Under the pieces are notes generated by a model, which was not told where the DNA came from, searched no databases, and was given only the letters and a program-made list of their open reading frames with translations. The translations under genes and the position numbers were made by a program. Shown here in pieces: positions 1 through 5,831 of a stretch of 32,000 bases of DNA (positions are counted from its first letter, which is position 1; each line of letters starts with the position of its first letter). Location: the NCBI GenBank assembly GCA_934660865.1, contig CAKUIA010000018.1:1-32000 (forward strand), written 5' to 3'. Source of the stretch: an uncultured Opitutales bacterium. Lineage in GTDB: Bacteria; Verrucomicrobiota; Verrucomicrobiia; Opitutales; Intestinicryptomonadaceae.

Positions 1-500
1 CTAAACGCGCAGCTTAGCCACTCTTCGCATTCAGATACACTAAGCTCCGAAAAATTGCGTCTGGCAAATTCGGGTTTGGTTTTAATCAGCCTATTTCCAA
101 TACAGCGAATGTCGCGTATGGAATCTGGGCGCAAATGCTGTTTGCTTTTTAAATACATAGCAAACCCGTCGGCAAAGCTCATTTCTTTAGTACGAATATT
201 TCGCAAGCCAACTTCAATAACTTTTAAAACAAACTGCGCGTCGGTCAATTTGCTGTCGTTTGGTTTTGCGTCCAAAATATTCCTGACAAACCTTGCCGCG
301 TCTAACGCAGAAACATTTGCACCGTTTAACACCTCTTTTATCAATAGTTCCATTTTGTCCATCGTATTTAAAATACGAGTGTCAAGTAAAAATTTCCAAG
401 AAACTTTTTGATTGCTTTGAAATAAGCTACTTGGACGATTTAACCGAACATTTAGTGCACGTTTCTTTTTTGAAAGTCGGGGAGGCCCGTATTCGGACAT
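1..500 (-). CDS. Hypothetical protein, N-terminal part only (runs off the left edge). Its N-terminal region resembles the core-binding (SAM-like) domain of tyrosine recombinases/integrases.
   Basis: Absent from the supplied track because it is open at the window edge. Hand translation of the minus frame shows no stop from 500 down to 1, with a TAA (503..501) directly upstream of ATG 500. Candidate starts are ATG 500, 362 and 353. From 362 it reads MDKMELLIKEVLNGANVSALDAARFVRNILDAKPNDSKLTDAQFVLKVIEVGLRNIRTKEMSFADGFAMYLKSKQHLRPDSIRDIRCIGNRLIKTKPEFARRNFSELSVSECEEWLSCAF. The F..YL...L.P.SIRD.R....L......F.ELS..E.E.WL pattern is typical of integrase N-terminal domains. The catalytic domain would lie outside the window, so family assignment is tentative. 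Confidence 0.45.
   Translation of the reverse strand, partial: MSEYGPPRLSKKKRALNVRLNRPSSLFQSNQKVSWKFLLDTRILNTMDKMELLIKEVLNGANVSALDAARFVRNILDAKPNDSKLTDAQFVLKVIEVGLRNIRTKEMSFADGFAMYLKSKQHLRPDSIRDIRCIGNRLIKTKPEFARRNFSELSVSECEEWLSCAF
360..378. repeat. Left arm of a perfect 19-bp inverted repeat (plus strand CATCGTATTTAAAATACGA)
   Basis: The reverse complement of 360..378 is TCGTATTTTAAATACGATG, identical to plus strand 539..557. The arm is itself a 17-bp palindrome (TCGTATTT-A-AAATACGA, 362..378). Its outer 3 nt are the complement of the minus-strand ATG at 362..360. Confidence 0.9.
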
Positions 501-538
501 TTATTGTTATTCAAAGTATTGCAGCATGACAGCGCATA

Positions 539-557
539 TCGTATTTTAAATACGATG
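539..557. repeat. Right arm of a perfect 19-bp inverted repeat (plus strand TCGTATTTTAAATACGATG)
   Basis: Exact reverse-complement match to 360..378. The palindromic core is TCGTATTT-T-AAATACGA (539..555). The central base is T here and A in the left arm, so the two arms match exactly only as inverted copies. The outer ATG (555..557) is in frame with the downstream beta-propeller ORF. Confidence 0.9.
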
Positions 558-587
558 CTCATCTTAGGAATATCAATAGCAAGGAAA

Positions 588-1790
588 ATGATGAGATCAG
601 TAAAATTTATCTTTGGCGGAATACTTGTATTTTTAGTATGTTTTTCGGCTGCGGCATCTTTTGCCGAAAGCGATGTAAAAATAGGCGGGTTCGACAAAAC
701 TTTTAAAACCCATAATATTATGGGTGAAATTAAAAGCGTTGCCGTTTTGGAGAACGACAACATTGTAGTTGGCGGTTTTCTTTCTACCATAGACGATGTT
801 GTTTCGCAAAACCTTATGAGTTTTGAAAAAGACGGCGAATTTAAGATGTTCTACGATGTGGGACTAGGCCCGGTGCAAACGGTTTATAAGGTTTTTACAG
901 CCCCCAATAACAGGGTGGTTATTACCGGTAAATTTTTAAAGATTAAGGACAAGCCGAGCGCATATATTGCGATTTTCGACGAAAAAGGCTCTAATATGGA
1001 ATTTTCGCCCGCGCCTGGGGCGAACGGCGAAATATATGCCGTAGAGGCCGACAGAGACGGTATTTGGATTGCAGGCAAGTTTACCGCCTTTAACCGAAAA
1101 AACAGAACTAAAATTTGCAGGATAGATTACAATGGCGCTTTAGATAAATGTTTTAACCCGGATATAAAAATTTCGGGCGAAGTGTATACTTTACATTTTT
1201 TTAACGAGGTTTTGTTTGTTGGCGGCTATTTTGGCGGAGCGGGTCCTTGCGTGGAAATCAAAACTACCCATAAAAGCCTTGGCAGGCTTTTGTGGCCAAA
1301 AACGAAACGTGCATTTTTCGATTCGCCCTTTAACCATTGCGGCGCAAACGGCAAAATTTTAAAAGTTGTAAGCCAGGGCAACAACCACCTTTTGGTTGTT
1401 GGCCGCTTTTCGGGGTATGCCGCGGGCAAAGAGTCGAACATAAGAACGGGTGCACTTGTTAGGGTAAATGCAACTACGGGCATGTTAGACAAGTCTTTTA
1501 AAGTTTCGCCAATGTATATAGACGGTACTATAAACGACGTTCTTGTGCACCCAAAAGACGGCAAAATTATTATAGTCGGGCGCTTTACAATGGTAGGCGG
1601 CATAAAGTGCAATAGGGTAGCGCGTCTTAACCCCGACGGCAGTGTAGACCCAACATTCGACAGCAAAATAGGAGCCGACCACGAAGTTTTAAGCGTAGCG
1701 GTTCAAAAATCCGGCAACTTAATAATAGGCGGCAGCTTTAGAAACTACGACGGCGTAAAATGCGACGGCCTTGCCCGCATAAACTACTAA
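588..1790 (+). CDS. Secreted delta-60 repeat / DUF5122-type beta-propeller protein, paralog 1
   Basis: This is track ORF 504..1790 trimmed to ATGATG at 588, which is preceded by AAGGAAA. An in-frame ATG at 555 is an alternative start. The N-terminus MMRSVKFIFGGILVFLVCFSAAASFA-ESD is a signal peptide. Blade motifs recur, for example DGKIIIVGRFTMVGGIKCNRVARLNPDGSVDPTFD and NLIIGGSFRNYDGVKCDGLARINY, as in delta-60 repeat (TIGR02608/PF17164-like) proteins. Confidence 0.8.
   Translation: MMRSVKFIFGGILVFLVCFSAAASFAESDVKIGGFDKTFKTHNIMGEIKSVAVLENDNIVVGGFLSTIDDVVSQNLMSFEKDGEFKMFYDVGLGPVQTVYKVFTAPNNRVVITGKFLKIKDKPSAYIAIFDEKGSNMEFSPAPGANGEIYAVEADRDGIWIAGKFTAFNRKNRTKICRIDYNGALDKCFNPDIKISGEVYTLHFFNEVLFVGGYFGGAGPCVEIKTTHKSLGRLLWPKTKRAFFDSPFNHCGANGKILKVVSQGNNHLLVVGRFSGYAAGKESNIRTGALVRVNATTGMLDKSFKVSPMYIDGTINDVLVHPKDGKIIIVGRFTMVGGIKCNRVARLNPDGSVDPTFDSKIGADHEVLSVAVQKSGNLIIGGSFRNYDGVKCDGLARINY
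1531..1787. repeat. Direct repeat copy A (3' end of paralog 1)
   Basis: Hand alignment against 2976..3232 (offset 1445 bp) gives 7 mismatches in 257 bp, at 1577, 1580-1583, 1591 and 1625. The stretch 1626..1787 is a perfect 162-bp match to 3071..3232. Confidence 0.9.
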
Positions 1791-1816
1791 ATACAATAGC
1801 GCAATAAATAAACAAA

Positions 1817-3244
1817 ATGCACATAATTAGAAAATTTACAGCTTTTATAATATGCCTTTTATCGACAATATGTTTTGCCGAAGACGGCGTAAAAATAGGC
1901 GGCTACGACAAAACCTTTAAAGCGCATAGCATTGTAGGCAGTGTTAAATGTGTTGCAGTGTTGGAAAACGACAACATTGTCGTTGGCGGTTCTATTTCGA
2001 AAATAGACGGTATTCCCGTGACATCGGTGGTTGGGCTTGAAAAAGACGGTTTAGTTAAACGTCCTTACGAATTTGAATCTTATGTATATCGGAGGAAGAT
2101 TTCCAGCATCTTTTCGCTCCCCCACAACAGCTTTTTTATTGCTTTTAACGAAATTTACGATGGTGATTATAGAAAAAATAACAATATTATTTTGTTTAGA
2201 GAAGATGGCATTGGAACTTGTTTGCCCATACACCTTTACAGACAAAACGAAGTAAGTGCAATAGTTGCAAATGAAAAAAATATTTTTGTTGCTACAAACA
2301 GAGTCGGTTTTGACAAAAAGAAAGGCAAGGTACGAAGATCTGGACTTATTCATAGATGTAGCTACAACGGCGATTTGAACGGGCAATTTCGTGTGCCTGT
2401 TACGGTTAGCGGTGCCGTTAACACTTTGCAAATTTTTGACAACACATTGTATATTGGAGGACTGTTTAGGGGCATAACCGCAAACGAAGAAATTATGGGT
2501 AATGCAACACATTCTAACGCTACGATATCTAATACCCGGGAACTAGAAGACCCATTTGCATTTGCAGGCGACATTAAAACTTTGCATACAAGCAAAGACC
2601 CATTTGCAAGCGCGAGCAAAAGCCATACTTCATTTCAAAAGGCAAATATAGACCCTTTTGCGGATAATACAAAAAATATAAATACAAAAAAATATATGCT
2701 AAGCACCGCAGGCAGTATTAATTTGGCTAAAATTTCGCTTATAGACGACGGCAATTTGCTTAAGGTATGGCAATTTTCGACAAAATGCGGCACAGACGGC
2801 GAAATAGTAAAAGTTGTAAAACAAGCCCCCGACAAGCTTTTGTTGGCTGGTAATTTTACTTCCTTCGGCAGCAAAGGTTCGTTTATCAAAACAGACGGGT
2901 TTATAAGAATAGACGAAAATACTGCGGAATTAGATAAAAGTTTTAAGGTAACAAGAAAATATGTGAACGGGAAAGTAAACGACGTTCTTGTGCACCCAAA
3001 AGACGGCAAAATTATTATAGTTGGAGATTTTACAAAGGTAGGCGGCATAAAGTGCAATAGGGTAGCGCGCCTTAACCCCGACGGCAGTGTAGACCCAACA
3101 TTCGACAGCAAAATAGGAGCCGACCACGAAGTTTTAAGCGTAGCGGTTCAAAAATCCGGCAACTTAATAATAGGCGGCAGCTTTAGAAACTACGACGGCG
3201 TAAAATGCGACGGCCTTGCCCGCATAAACTACGGTGCTAAGTGA
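1817..3244 (+). CDS. Secreted delta-60 repeat / DUF5122-type beta-propeller protein, paralog 2 (carries a low-complexity DPFA insert)
   Basis: Has the signal peptide MHIIRKFTAFIICLLSTICFA-EDG. The N-terminal blade (VKIGGYDKTFKAHSIVGSVKCVAVLENDNIVVGG) and the C-terminal ~85 aa are homologous to paralog 1. It starts 26 nt after paralog 1 with no terminator between them, so the two are probably co-transcribed. Confidence 0.8.
   Translation: MHIIRKFTAFIICLLSTICFAEDGVKIGGYDKTFKAHSIVGSVKCVAVLENDNIVVGGSISKIDGIPVTSVVGLEKDGLVKRPYEFESYVYRRKISSIFSLPHNSFFIAFNEIYDGDYRKNNNIILFREDGIGTCLPIHLYRQNEVSAIVANEKNIFVATNRVGFDKKKGKVRRSGLIHRCSYNGDLNGQFRVPVTVSGAVNTLQIFDNTLYIGGLFRGITANEEIMGNATHSNATISNTRELEDPFAFAGDIKTLHTSKDPFASASKSHTSFQKANIDPFADNTKNINTKKYMLSTAGSINLAKISLIDDGNLLKVWQFSTKCGTDGEIVKVVKQAPDKLLLAGNFTSFGSKGSFIKTDGFIRIDENTAELDKSFKVTRKYVNGKVNDVLVHPKDGKIIIVGDFTKVGGIKCNRVARLNPDGSVDPTFDSKIGADHEVLSVAVQKSGNLIIGGSFRNYDGVKCDGLARINYGAK
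2976..3232. repeat. Direct repeat copy B (3' end of paralog 2)
   Basis: Matches 1531..1787 as described for copy A. The repeat ends exactly at the last shared codon (..ARINY), after which the two genes differ: stop in paralog 1, GAK-stop in paralog 2. Confidence 0.9.
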
Positions 3245-3274
3245 TGTATTCCTTGATATGGACGAAGTTTGTGA

Positions 3275-3298
3275 AATAGGCGAATACGCCTATTTTTT
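3275..3298 (+). terminator. Rho-independent terminator after paralog 2
   Basis: Stem ATAGGCG (3276..3282) pairs with CGCCTAT (3287..3293) around a 4-nt loop, followed by a T-run. It overlaps the stop codon of the convergent DUF486 gene. Confidence 0.6.
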
Positions 3299-3631
3299 AT
3301 AGAACACGAAAAAGACGGCAAGTATCATTAGCGCGAAGCCTACTAGGTAGTTCCATTTTATTTCTTCTTTCATAAAAAATATGGTAAAGAAGATGAATAC
3401 CGTTAAGGTTATGGCTTCCTGCATAGTCTTTAGTTGCGCTACGTCGAAATACTTATGGCCGTAGCGGTTGGCGGGAACTTGAAAGCAATATTCAAAAAAC
3501 GCTATGCCCCAGCTTATTACAACAGCCAGCCATATGGGCCACTGTTTCGCCTTTAGGTGTCCGTACCATGCAAAGGTCATAAACACGTTTGAAATTGTAA
3601 GCAATAAAACTATGGGTAGCCACTTTGTCAT
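3290..3631 (-). CDS. Small DMT-superfamily membrane protein (DUF486-like)
   Basis: 113 aa with about 4 hydrophobic helices. The N-terminal LTISNVFMTFAWYGHLK motif is characteristic of the DUF486 family. Its start overlaps the IclR gene stop in ATGA (3631..3628), indicating translational coupling. Confidence 0.75.
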   Translation of the reverse strand: MTKWLPIVLLLTISNVFMTFAWYGHLKAKQWPIWLAVVISWGIAFFEYCFQVPANRYGHKYFDVAQLKTMQEAITLTVFIFFTIFFMKEEIKWNYLVGFALMILAVFFVFYKK

Positions 3632-4419
3632 TTTTTATAGCCAAGTTTTTTTGAAATTAGGGCTGCGGCCTGTTTTGTACCTTTAACCATTTTGTTGAAT
3701 TTGCCCAGCCTTGCCGACGGCGCCGAAACCCACAAAACCCCCTTAACTTTGCCGGAGGCGTCGAATATGGGGGCGGCGGCGCTTATTATGCCCCTTATGT
3801 ATTCTTCGTTGTCTACGGCGTAGCCTTGTGTTGCAATCATTTCCAATTCGGGCAAAACCTTGTAGAAATCTATTTTGTTAGACGGCCTAATGGCGTTTAT
3901 TTTTTCGATAATCTCCAGCATTTGGGGCTTGTCGTAGTTGGCCAAAATTGCCTTGCCCTGGGCCGAGGGATACAGCGGCGAGCTCATGCCTATATTGCCC
4001 ATAAAAATGAATTCGTCGTTGCCCGAAACCCTTTTAACAAGCACGCAGCTTGTTTGGTGCCTTACCCCAAGCATAACGGTTTCGCCGCAGTTGTCGCGCA
4101 GGTTTTCCATAATCTTTTCGCTTGCCGAGGCAATGTCTATGTCGGGCTCGCTCTTTTGGGCGCTTGTAATTTGCGCAACGCCCACCGCCTTTTTTGCCGC
4201 CGTATATTTTTTGTCGCTTTCCGAATATTCCAAAAAGCCCGCGTTTTTCAGCGAAACAACAATTCTATACATTGTGGTTTTGCCCGTGTCGAACGCCTTT
4301 AATATTTCGGGGAAGGCAAGCGGCTTTTGCGACTTTGCCACATACTCAAGCACCTGCAACGCCCGCATTAGGTTGGGTATTTCGTATTTTTTGTCGAAGC
4401 GCTGACGTTGTTTTGCCAT
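3628..4419 (-). CDS. IclR-family transcriptional regulator
   Basis: Track ORF 3628..4476 trimmed to ATG 4419 (MAKQRQRFDKKYEIPNLMRALQVLEYVAKSQKPLAFPEILKAFDTGKTTMYRIVVSLKNAGFLEY). It has an N-terminal winged HTH followed by a C-terminal IclR effector-type domain (..GIISAAAPIFDASGKVKGVLWVSAPSARL). Confidence 0.85.
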   Translation of the reverse strand: MAKQRQRFDKKYEIPNLMRALQVLEYVAKSQKPLAFPEILKAFDTGKTTMYRIVVSLKNAGFLEYSESDKKYTAAKKAVGVAQITSAQKSEPDIDIASASEKIMENLRDNCGETVMLGVRHQTSCVLVKRVSGNDEFIFMGNIGMSSPLYPSAQGKAILANYDKPQMLEIIEKINAIRPSNKIDFYKVLPELEMIATQGYAVDNEEYIRGIISAAAPIFDASGKVKGVLWVSAPSARLGKFNKMVKGTKQAAALISKKLGYKK

Positions 4420-4595
4420 GGGTATTTTTCCGCGTAAGTCTTTATATTTTTGCCTAAAATTTTTGCAAAGCAACAAAATAAATGGGCATTGTTTTTTACA
4501 AAGGGCGTTTTTTTAGGGTAAAAATACGCCGTAAAAAAGTGTTGAAAGTAGCCTTTATATTTATAGAGTATCTGCAAATTTTACATATACAGGAT

Positions 4596-5831
4596 ATGAG
4601 CGAAATAAAAGTACCACAAGGTGAAAAAATAACCATTGCCGCAGGCAAGCTTTGCGTGCCCGACAAGCCCATTATGCCCTTTATAGAGGGCGACGGTATT
4701 GGCCCCGACATTTGGGCCGCCGCACGCAGGGTTTTGGATAAGGCCGTAGAAAAGGCCTACGGCGGAAAAAGGCAAATTCAATGGTTCGAGGTTTACGCGG
4801 GCGAAAAGGCCTTTAAAAAGTTCGGCAACTGGCTTCCCGAAGAAACGCTTAAGGCGTTTAAGGAATATTTGGTAGGCATTAAAGGCCCGTTGACAACCCC
4901 CATAGGCGGTGGCATTCGCTCGCTTAACGTGGCCTTAAGGCAGGAGTTGGATTTGTATGTATGCCAGCGTCCCGTGCGCTATTTCGAGGGTGTAGACAGC
5001 CCCGTAAAGCACCCCGAGTTGGTCGACATGGTTATATTCCGCGAAAATACCGAAGACATTTATGCGGGCATAGAATTTCAAAACGGCAGTGCCGAAGTTG
5101 AAAAACTAAAGGCGTTTTTGAAGGAAAACTTCCCCGACAGGTTCAAGAAAATACGCTTCCCCGACTCGTGCTCGCTGGGCATTAAGCCCGTTTCGCAAGA
5201 GGGCACAAGCAGGCTTGTGCGCAGCGCGATAGAATATGCAATAAAGCAGAACCGCAAAAGCGTAACTTTTGTGCACAAGGGCAATATTATGAAGTTTACC
5301 GAAGGGTTCTTCCGCGACTGGGGCTACAAAGTTGCCCGCGAAGAGTTCGGAGGCGAAGTAATCGACAAGGGCCCATGGTGCAAGTTGCCAAACGGCATTA
5401 TAGTTAAAGACGTTATTGCCGACGCCTTTTTGCAGCAAATCCTTACAAGACCCGCCGAATACGACGTAGTTGCCACGCTAAACCTTAACGGCGACTATAT
5501 CTCCGACGCTTTGGCTGCCCAGGTAGGCGGCATAGGCATTGCCCCCGGCGGAAACATAAACTACCTTACCGGCCATGCCATATTCGAAGCTACGCACGGC
5601 ACGGCTCCCAAATATGCGGGACTAGACAAGGTAAACCCCGGTTCCGTGATATTGTCGGGCGAAATGATGTTCAGATACATGGGCTGGAACGAGGCCGCCG
5701 ACCTTGTAATTAAGGGGCTGGAAAACGCAATCGCCAGCAAATATGTTACCTACGACTTGGCAAGGCTTATACAGGGCTCTACCGAAGTTAAGTGCTCGCA
5801 GTTTGCCGACAAAATGATAGAGCTTATGTAG
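4596..5831 (+). CDS. icd: NADP-dependent isocitrate dehydrogenase
   Basis: Track ORF 4482..5831 trimmed to ATG 4596, preceded by ACAGGAT. The protein ([76 protein letters not shown]) aligns along its full length with E. coli-type Icd. Confidence 0.95.

Follow-up and report, generated by a model that had tools for sequence, protein, structure and literature searches.

Is the short intergenic region near the left end of this contig a DNA switch and, if so, which enzyme would turn it and which genes would it control? The stretch analysed (hereafter the window) comprises 32,000 nt of an uncultured Opitutales bacterium (contig CAKUIA010000018.1), and the region in question, 360-557, is made up of a 160-bp segment enclosed by an inverted repeat, with a recombinase-like gene on its left and two beta-propeller genes on its right. 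A sequence-only reading of the window had proposed an invertible promoter of this kind. We find that 360-557 is most probably an inverton, in which the adjoining Xer-like tyrosine recombinase would flip 379-538 between two inverted 17-bp core sites. This interpretation is supported at the level of a family of related loci, and a switch function is probable for the window locus itself. The elements on which the argument turns are the following.

1-362, minus strand: 5' part of the putative recombinase gene (residues 1-120, read from the translation), with start codon ATG at 362-360; the gene exits the window on the left.
362-378, unstranded: recombinase-proximal site, TCGTATT-TAA-AATACGA, with its centre at 369-371; the perfect repeat reaches 360.
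362, minus strand: last base of the proximal site, A362, which is also the A of the recombinase ATG; this overlap is shared with about 58 related loci.
379-538, unstranded: putative invertible segment, 160 bp; the TTGACA end lies beside the recombinase, which is the majority orientation.
380-385 (TGTCAA on the plus strand), minus strand: -35-like TTGACA that reads outward, separated from the site by 1 nt; an A/T-rich tract (386 to about 425) comes before it on this strand.
511-524, plus strand: TCAA-AGTA-TTG(CAG), a possible weak -35 (TTGCAG, 519-524) or the TTR part of a motif resembling the integration host factor (IHF) consensus.
539-555, unstranded: distal site, TCGTATT-TTA-AATACGA, with its centre at 546-548 and an outward -10-like TATTTT at 542-547; the perfect repeat reaches 557.

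The repeat itself is exact. As had been claimed from the letters alone, 360-378 (CATCGTATTTAAAATACGA) is the reverse complement of 539-557 (TCGTATTTTAAATACGATG), and among perfect inverted repeats with a gap of 30-300 bp no longer one than this 19-nt pair exists in the window. When the window was resampled 200 times with a first-order Markov model, the longest inverted repeat was usually 11-13 nt, reached 16 nt once and never exceeded 16 nt (0/200). Each arm contains a 17-bp near-palindrome (TCGTATTTAAAATACGA at 362-378, TCGTATTTTAAATACGA at 539-555), the two differing solely in the central base. The sequence-only reading had placed the asymmetry of the sites in that single base, which is true of the window, but in the family as a whole it is a 3-bp centre that is asymmetric. 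Allowing up to three mismatches, the site pattern matches just twice in the window, at these two positions. The enclosed segment is intergenic, with divergent genes on either side, and an Rfam scan of 200-800 returned nothing relevant.

About 60 related loci from gut Opitutales have the same architecture, namely two 17-bp sites of the form T-N-GTATT-NNN-AATAC-N-A placed 135-163 bp apart. At every one of them the recombinase ATG takes its A from the end of one site, and the second site lies upstream, before a divergent, unrelated gene. The roughly 58 loci with this overlap of site and start codon come from metagenome-assembled genomes of gut Opitutales, from Intestinicryptomonas porci and from human-gut metagenomes. 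The window segment is homologous to the segments of four of these loci (L006, L011, L108 and L129; the L numbers designate individual loci), and the window copy combines the majority orientation, a perfect repeat and the conserved TTGACA.

The centres bear on whether these are recombination sites. A metagenome collection was scanned for two copies of GTATTNNNAATAC separated by 137-167 nt, with unconstrained centres, and reverse-complementary centres were found in 52 of 114 site pairs, where 1/64 is expected (binomial P ~5e-62). Identical centres occurred in 22/114 pairs, which are apparently unrelated direct repeats, several of them in tandem arrays. A scan of viral contigs served as the background control and gave complementary centres in 5/59 pairs, about three of which are true family members. 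Over all collections, the N-terminus of a recombinase begins in one of the two sites in about 58 of 72 complementary-centre pairs. There are 15 centre triplets among 51 unique switches, and the partner site is always complementary; the orthologues L008 (CAG/CTG) and L076/L116 (CGG/CCG) even differ by a compensated centre change affecting both sites. Since the search prescribed the arms GTATT/AATAC, these are invariant, and the positions flanking them are near-symmetric. In loxP, FRT and dif, strand exchange requires identical centres, and the asymmetry of the centre decides between inversion and deletion. Centres that covary are what one would expect in the crossover region of a core site used by a tyrosine recombinase. 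The lox/FRT-type logic suggested for the window therefore extends to the family: the sites have inverted arms and an asymmetric centre that is matched between partners, which varies between loci and covaries as reverse complements within each locus. A phage origin of the family was considered and rejected, given just 5/59 viral-contig pairs with complementary centres and only about three resembling family members.

Each site would thus offer two 7-bp arms, TNGTATT/AATACNA, each presumably binding one recombinase monomer, and a 3-bp centre that would give the site its polarity and would have to match between partners. Because the two sites are inverted, recombination would invert rather than delete the segment. 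L105 (~4360-4590) has three copies of the site: the extra one stands 7 nt outside the distal site, points the same way as that site, and would allow alternative inversions.

Both orientations of the segment are indeed found. Sixty loci were oriented by their recombinase gene, with the TTGACA end of the segment as the marker. A perfect or near-perfect TTGACA stands 1 nt from the recombinase-proximal site in 54/60 loci and beside the distal site in the other 6/60 (L008, L009, L015, L020, L064 and L105). Between L008 and L076/L116 the flanks are colinear (134/150 positions on the distal side, 225/250 on the recombinase side), whereas the segment matches at 113/137 positions when reverse-complemented and at 78/137 when left unflipped, and the match spans from site to site. 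Likewise, the L009 segment matches the segments of L001, L005 and L045 in reverse complement (87-89% over 155-158 nt). L096 and L064 share the recombinase start and the segment in opposite orientations, and here a variable inner half-site (CCGTATT/AATACGG) stays with the TTGACA end; because this half-site travels with the segment, the crossover is placed between the arms, in the centre. The flipped orientation that the sequence-only reading had predicted is therefore seen among related loci, orthologous and paralogous, and the inversion breakpoints fall exactly at the repeats. An assembly artefact is an unlikely source of the flipped orientations, as 17-bp sites are well below the k-mer sizes given in several of the contig names (k77-k141).

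What enzyme would act on these sites? The 120 visible residues of the left open reading frame (ORF) have no Pfam match of their own, and are 75-84% identical to the N-termini of PF00589 recombinases of 330-381 aa. The full-length homologues, from gut Opitutales (uncultured metagenome-assembled genomes, Candidatus Merdousia and Intestinicryptomonas porci), carry PF00589 with E values of 1e-11 to 1e-14, and R200, K227, R284, H307 and Y317 are invariant in 11 full-length relatives. The earlier description of the left gene as recombinase-like is borne out by these homologues and by a related strain, L021, that retains the catalytic C-terminus. An invariant Asp281 (numbering of the L009 recombinase; QDVLRH) aligns with the His of the HxxR motif in XerA (PHVLRH), and XerD likewise has His in this motif. 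Judged from the alignment, Asp in place of this His is a deviation within the tyrosine recombinase superfamily and no exclusion from it. The full-length homologues align to the XerA structure 5hxy, and their best scores against the XerA, XerC and XerD NCBIfam models are 51-55 bits against curated cut-offs of 220-335. By these comparisons the recombinases are Xer-like in fold and size and are not Xer orthologues. An AlphaFold2 model of the 120 residues is all-helical with a predicted local distance difference test (pLDDT) score of 88; Foldseek found no significant match to this model, and residues ~60-120 show a weak local likeness to integrase core-binding domains. The recombinases thus bear an extra N-terminal helical extension of about 60 aa without a family match. 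There are 2-3 copies of the recombinase gene per genome, and the cultured Intestinicryptomonas porci Cla-KB-P66 (NZ_JALBUT01) has three copies of the switch, L012, L013 and the flipped L020.

The recombinase genes of the family vary in form. In many loci an intact switch is followed by a 113-aa ORF that consists of recombinase residues 1-84 and a conserved 29-aa tail (TMKPWQNAKQFAIHANIGRLPPALEWANA) and ends at a terminator hairpin; L151 has two such units, at 2245-2586 and 5001-5342, 2.9 kb apart. By their sequence these ORFs look like paralogues reduced to the N-terminal domain, not random pseudogenes. The best 120 matches to the window ORF are all of 206 aa or less. L002-L004 have a 196-aa truncated recombinase (L002 6001-6591) with the tail RPEPNVARMAPRYFGDLRFCNIP, identical in three samples and with constant switch orientation, and are a candidate locked switch. 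In L005, L006 and L008 an in-frame insert of ~25-50 aa (QFKRSANEISPQAKDPKGE...; alignment columns ~124-172) separates the N-terminal extension from the core-binding domain, and an insert at the same position occurs in P0016, P0028, P0036 and P0038, which comprise several diverged recombinases and some truncated forms; the recurrence suggests a small repeated insert. L010 (~3985) and L018 (~3967) have a single site at the recombinase ATG and no partner in ~4 kb of upstream sequence, and the partner may have been lost or may lie far off, which would make the invertible region larger; in L010 a divergent ORF, read by eye, apparently starts ~20 nt from the site. Orphan switches with no adjoining recombinase gene were also seen (L009 7859-8029, L067 1225-1417, L136 2655-2849, L140 1159-1343 and L109 319-513) and presumably rely on recombinases in trans. 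In the orphans of L067 and L136, TTGACA points toward a gene with a Shine-Dalgarno sequence, and a terminator lies on the opposite side.

How could a flip alter expression? Divergent target genes begin 12-91 nt past the distal site (12-22 nt at about 17 loci), and the target ATG of the window lies 32 nt beyond it; with target ATGs so close, the target promoter must sit in the site or in the segment. The two ends of the segment carry different elements. At end A, an A/T-rich tract (consensus ttcaaaagttttttgaaattttt) is followed by TTGACA at a fixed position in 49/55 unique segments. End B has TCAA-N4-TT(R) at a constant spacing of ~15 nt from the site in 32/55 segments, with a loosely conserved -35-like hexamer (TTnnnA), and the strict E. 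coli IHF consensus WATCAANNNNTTR is present there in 15/55. In the window, TTGCAG at 519-524 is followed after 17 nt by TATTTT at 542-547. Being part of the TCAA-N4-TTR motif, this TTGCAG may be a weak -35, an accessory-protein site, or both. Both promoter-like elements named in the sequence-only reading, TTGACA and TTGCAG-17-TATTTT, are thus present, but the latter is just one of two candidate outward promoters.

The first of these candidates (P1) would use an outward TATTnN inside the site itself. Read outward, the central base of the site is T in 34, A in 5, G in 5 and C in 7 of the 51 unique switches, and this bias toward T would make the hexamer TATTnT. Transcription starting 7 nt downstream of it would begin at the A of the recombinase ATG, the base with which the site ends; since an ATG in this position leaves no room for a ribosome-binding site, a leaderless recombinase mRNA would be implied. 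The second candidate (P2) is a hybrid, in which TTGACA plus one base plus the 17-bp site would provide an 18-nt spacer and the -10 would lie in the first six bases of the fixed flank. Consistent with such a -10, the target-side flank has T as its first base in 77% and A as its second in 72%, whereas the recombinase-side flank is always TG. Over 53 related loci, TA directly follows the distal site in about 75% and TG in a minority. In orphan switches, the flank toward the presumed target gene, the one with a Shine-Dalgarno sequence, begins with TA in 5/6 cases, against 1/5 of the opposite readable flanks. L002, L075, L099 and L141 have TAnnnT, 6-8 nt and an ATG directly in the target flank. On these sequence patterns we regard the chances of the P2 arrangement as evenly balanced. 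TTGACA was also tried as the -35 of a recombinase promoter and rejected, as a spacer of 17-18 nt puts the -10 on ATGRAM, past the start codon.

A flip would exchange the -35/UP modules of the two sides, so that the one directed at the recombinase would come to be directed at the target genes and vice versa. With the segment flipped, TTGACA would meet the TA-initiated flank -10 and form a stronger hybrid promoter, probably the ON state; at the window locus, flipping 379-538 would create the junction TTGACAC-TCGTATTTTAAATACGATGCTCATC. The majority state, which is that of the window, would leave the target with a weaker P1-type promoter and would probably be low or OFF. Both the location of the promoters and the identity of the ON orientation are thus putative. 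The right-hand arm of the window repeat holds a further peculiarity. Both arms had been said to end outward in ATG, the left one opening the recombinase ORF and the right one in frame with the first propeller gene. This holds for the window, where ATG 555-557 is in frame with ORF 504-1790, but the in-frame ATG on the right is peculiar to it: as a conserved alternative target start it was rejected, since it is not a family feature and the other TG-flank cases checked run into stops. In the window only, it is possible that a P1 transcript would begin at ATG 555 and give an N-terminally extended propeller protein.

A more far-reaching model, which we put forward tentatively and consider doubtful as a whole, would make these loci self-contained, addressed switches unlike those of the fimS type, combining a site that splits the promoter, a leaderless and autoregulated recombinase, a 3-bp address and trans regulators of 113 aa. 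The segment would carry the UP element and TTGACA along, and the -10 would remain beside the target gene; the recombinase, by binding its own site, would regulate itself, and the orientation would set its -35; the 3-bp centre would stop several switches of one genome from recombining with one another; and the widespread 113-aa N-terminal-domain proteins would regulate switching in trans. Orthogonality in the form of one centre per genome was examined and set aside: switches that share a genome or contig do have different centres, but given 15 centre types the difference is statistically not compelling.

Several observations weigh against a functioning switch of this kind in the window. The window recombinase gene is visible to residue 120 only, and many relatives are truncated, as the 113-aa and 196-aa forms and a frameshift in L001 attest. 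For the window locus itself, inversion is inferred from its relatives, and 90% of the loci are in one orientation, which could reflect rare or historical inversion rather than frequent phase variation. As regards the promoters, a scan of 250-700 for consensus promoters and terminators returned nothing. The target-side flank of the window is TGCTCA, not TA..., so a hybrid TTGACA promoter would be poor at this locus, and just 42% of loci have T as the sixth base of the putative flank -10.

Related strains bear on whether the locus still works. In L021, a strain 98.8% identical in the flank (L021 6343-6868 versus window 1-3268), a 3' remnant of the recombinase gene follows the DMT_6 gene directly; a deletion has removed the 5' part of that recombinase gene, the switch and both propeller genes. 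The remnant encodes ...WVQDVLRHTYASF...NMGHSNQMLLCHRYINM..., which matches the catalytic C-terminus, and because L021 keeps this 3' end, a catalytic domain once belonged to the window locus. L024 (sample ERZ27286925, contig k141_883671) is 100% identical to window 3092-4000. By these comparisons the window locus is an island that varies between strains. No second copy of it came from look-ups of the exact sequences of both propeller proteins, nor from tblastn and blastn searches against all collected loci, where the best identity to it was 84%.

Of the explanations other than an active inverton, the one that survives best, which we nevertheless judge improbable, is that the window holds a real member of the switch family in a locked or fossil state, with its sites intact, its recombinase truncated or inactive and the segment serving as a fixed promoter region. 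Such a state would fit a left gene that cannot be traced past residue 120, the great number of truncated relatives, among them 113-aa and 196-aa forms beside intact switches (L002-L004, L151) and the frameshifted L001, and a sister strain, L021, that has lost the switch and the 5' part of the recombinase gene. However, the window ORF continues past residue 84, the common breakpoint of truncated relatives, and the sites still form a perfect 19-bp repeat, which decay would erode. The 2-3 paralogous recombinases per genome might moreover act in trans, and the L021 remnant shows that a catalytic C-terminus was once present at the locus.

Far less probable is the alternative that the sequence-only reading itself had offered, in which the palindromes are twin operators of a dimeric regulator that loops the 177 bp between them and represses the divergent genes with no rearrangement. 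The near-perfect palindromes do overlap the likely transcription and translation starts of the divergent genes, and a recombinase bound over its own start codon would also repress, so that operator-like autoregulation may coexist with inversion. Yet operators would not require reverse-complementary centres, which were nonetheless found in 52/114 unconstrained pairs and in 15 centre types, and they would not explain a segment that is inverted between colinear flanks. The relative polarity of the sites is always inverted, and the adjoining gene encodes a tyrosine recombinase rather than a helix-turn-helix regulator. Had the palindrome been a regulon operator it might have recurred before other genes; a search for further copies found GTATTNNNAATAC nowhere outside switch positions in 213 kb made up of the window and related loci. 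With the motif confined to switch pairs within these 213 kb and the centres covarying in the scan, the regulon-operator alternative is removed, and the operator pair is contradicted by the same covariation, by the flipped segments and by the restriction of the motif to switches.

It is equally hard to credit a mobile island that carries recombinase, switch and propeller genes as a unit and uses these sites for attachment or as its ends, with the inverted repeat a by-product: the module does stand beside unrelated genes at different loci, and the window island is absent from L021 with its 98.8% identical flank, but the sites enclose just 135-163 bp and never the recombinase or the cargo, an island that integrates and excises would need direct repeats at its borders, the L021 deletion ends inside the recombinase gene with no precise excision at a site, and just three family members occur in the viral-contig collection.

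An inverton driven by the adjoining recombinase thus stays the preferred account of 360-557, and the genes it would control in the window are these.

588-1790, plus strand: first DUF5122 beta-propeller gene, with a signal-peptide-like N-terminus (PF17164, E 1.7e-27); AAGGA stands just before ATG 588.
1817-3244, plus strand: second DUF5122 beta-propeller gene, also with a signal-peptide-like N-terminus (PF17164, E 1e-22), sharing repeats with the first.

The second gene is a paralogue of the first and probably co-transcribed with it. The two share a long repeat (window 1426-1725 and 2871-3170; 82% over 300 nt, the 3' ends being identical for 141 nt), and nearly all metagenome contigs found here (L022-L030, from the DMT_6 look-up) break in the repeated 3' part of the propeller genes. 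Elsewhere in the family the recombinase-plus-switch module adjoins unrelated genes at different loci. The 43 distinct targets include six pentapeptide-repeat, three PEP-CTERM and two TIR (CAP12/Pycsar-type) proteins, together with WavE, a GT25 glycosyltransferase, an acyltransferase-3, beta-helix and Ig-domain proteins and the DUF5122 propeller of the window, and many target products have signal peptides. Surface, lipopolysaccharide and defence proteins are the usual cargo of phase-variable loci.

Gut Opitutales, mostly uncultured, therefore carry many recombinase-linked switches before genes for secreted repeat proteins, lipopolysaccharide-modifying enzymes and TIR-type defence proteins, which would be the same bet-hedging strategy as documented in Bacteroides and Akkermansia. 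With fixed 7-bp arms and a free but covarying 3-bp centre, the family provides an unusually clean natural data set on the design of tyrosine-recombinase sites, and it could yield small orthogonal site/recombinase pairs for engineering. The three copies in the cultured Intestinicryptomonas porci Cla-KB-P66 make the model directly testable.

Many gut bacteria carry invertons, which are numerous in Verrucomicrobiota (PMC13343947, PMC11892184). We found no literature on invertons in Opitutales, Merdousia or Intestinicryptomonas, and no papers on surface variation in gut Opitutales. The closest described relatives are the invertons of Akkermansia muciniphila, including 'group 138' (PMC11892184) and the cps1 inverton (PMC13343947), which like the window family belong to this phylum, live in the gut and occur in many copies per genome. 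A published example has 17-bp repeats around 157 bp (2092093-2092109-2092267-2092283) near autotransporter genes, so its geometry is that of the window family (17 bp, 135-163 bp), and the palindromic ATT...AAT form is shared as well. The Akkermansia targets are surface structures (autotransporters, capsule), and both orientations have been shown experimentally in that organism. The arms differ: the Akkermansia repeat motif quoted in the literature, where it is attributed to Jiang et al. 2019, is CGGATT..AATCCG, against GTATT..AATAC in the window family, a comparison made by published motif and coordinates. CGGATT..AATCCG is also a common tRNA anticodon stem-loop sequence, and searching with the motif alone misleads; a scan of viral contigs for CGGATTNNNAATCCG was discarded, its matches (L216-L224) being tRNA anticodon stem-loops only.

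With fimS/FimB-FimE of Escherichia coli and the Tsr switches of Bacteroides fragilis, the window family shares a short intergenic segment, inverted repeats and an adjoining tyrosine recombinase, as well as control of surface proteins and a possible site for an accessory bending protein in the segment. fimS measures 314 bp, has 9-bp repeats and holds a complete promoter inside the segment. Unlike fimS, the window family has 17-bp palindromic sites, one of which contains the recombinase start codon, and its best -35 abuts the site, so that any -10 would lie in the site or in the fixed flank. The Tsr tyrosine-invertase switches are those of Weinacht et al. 2004, as cited in PMC11602134.

Two inverted arms, an asymmetric centre that sets polarity and matching centres in partner sites are features held in common with loxP/Cre, FRT/Flp and dif/Xer, and the recombinases of the window family are most similar to XerA, XerC and XerD. 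loxP is built as 13-8-13 and dif as 11-6-11. At 7-3-7 (or perhaps 5-7-5, with TT/AA counted in the overlap) the window-family site is far shorter than these, and the central 3 bp alone vary; compared with Xer, the recombinases have Asp for the HxxR His and the N-terminal extension of ~60 aa. A tyrosine-recombinase inverton is in itself a known device, and the family described here, large and apparently undescribed, resembles the Akkermansia switches. What possibly distinguishes it is a site placed inside a promoter spacer, a leaderless recombinase and an address of 3 bp.

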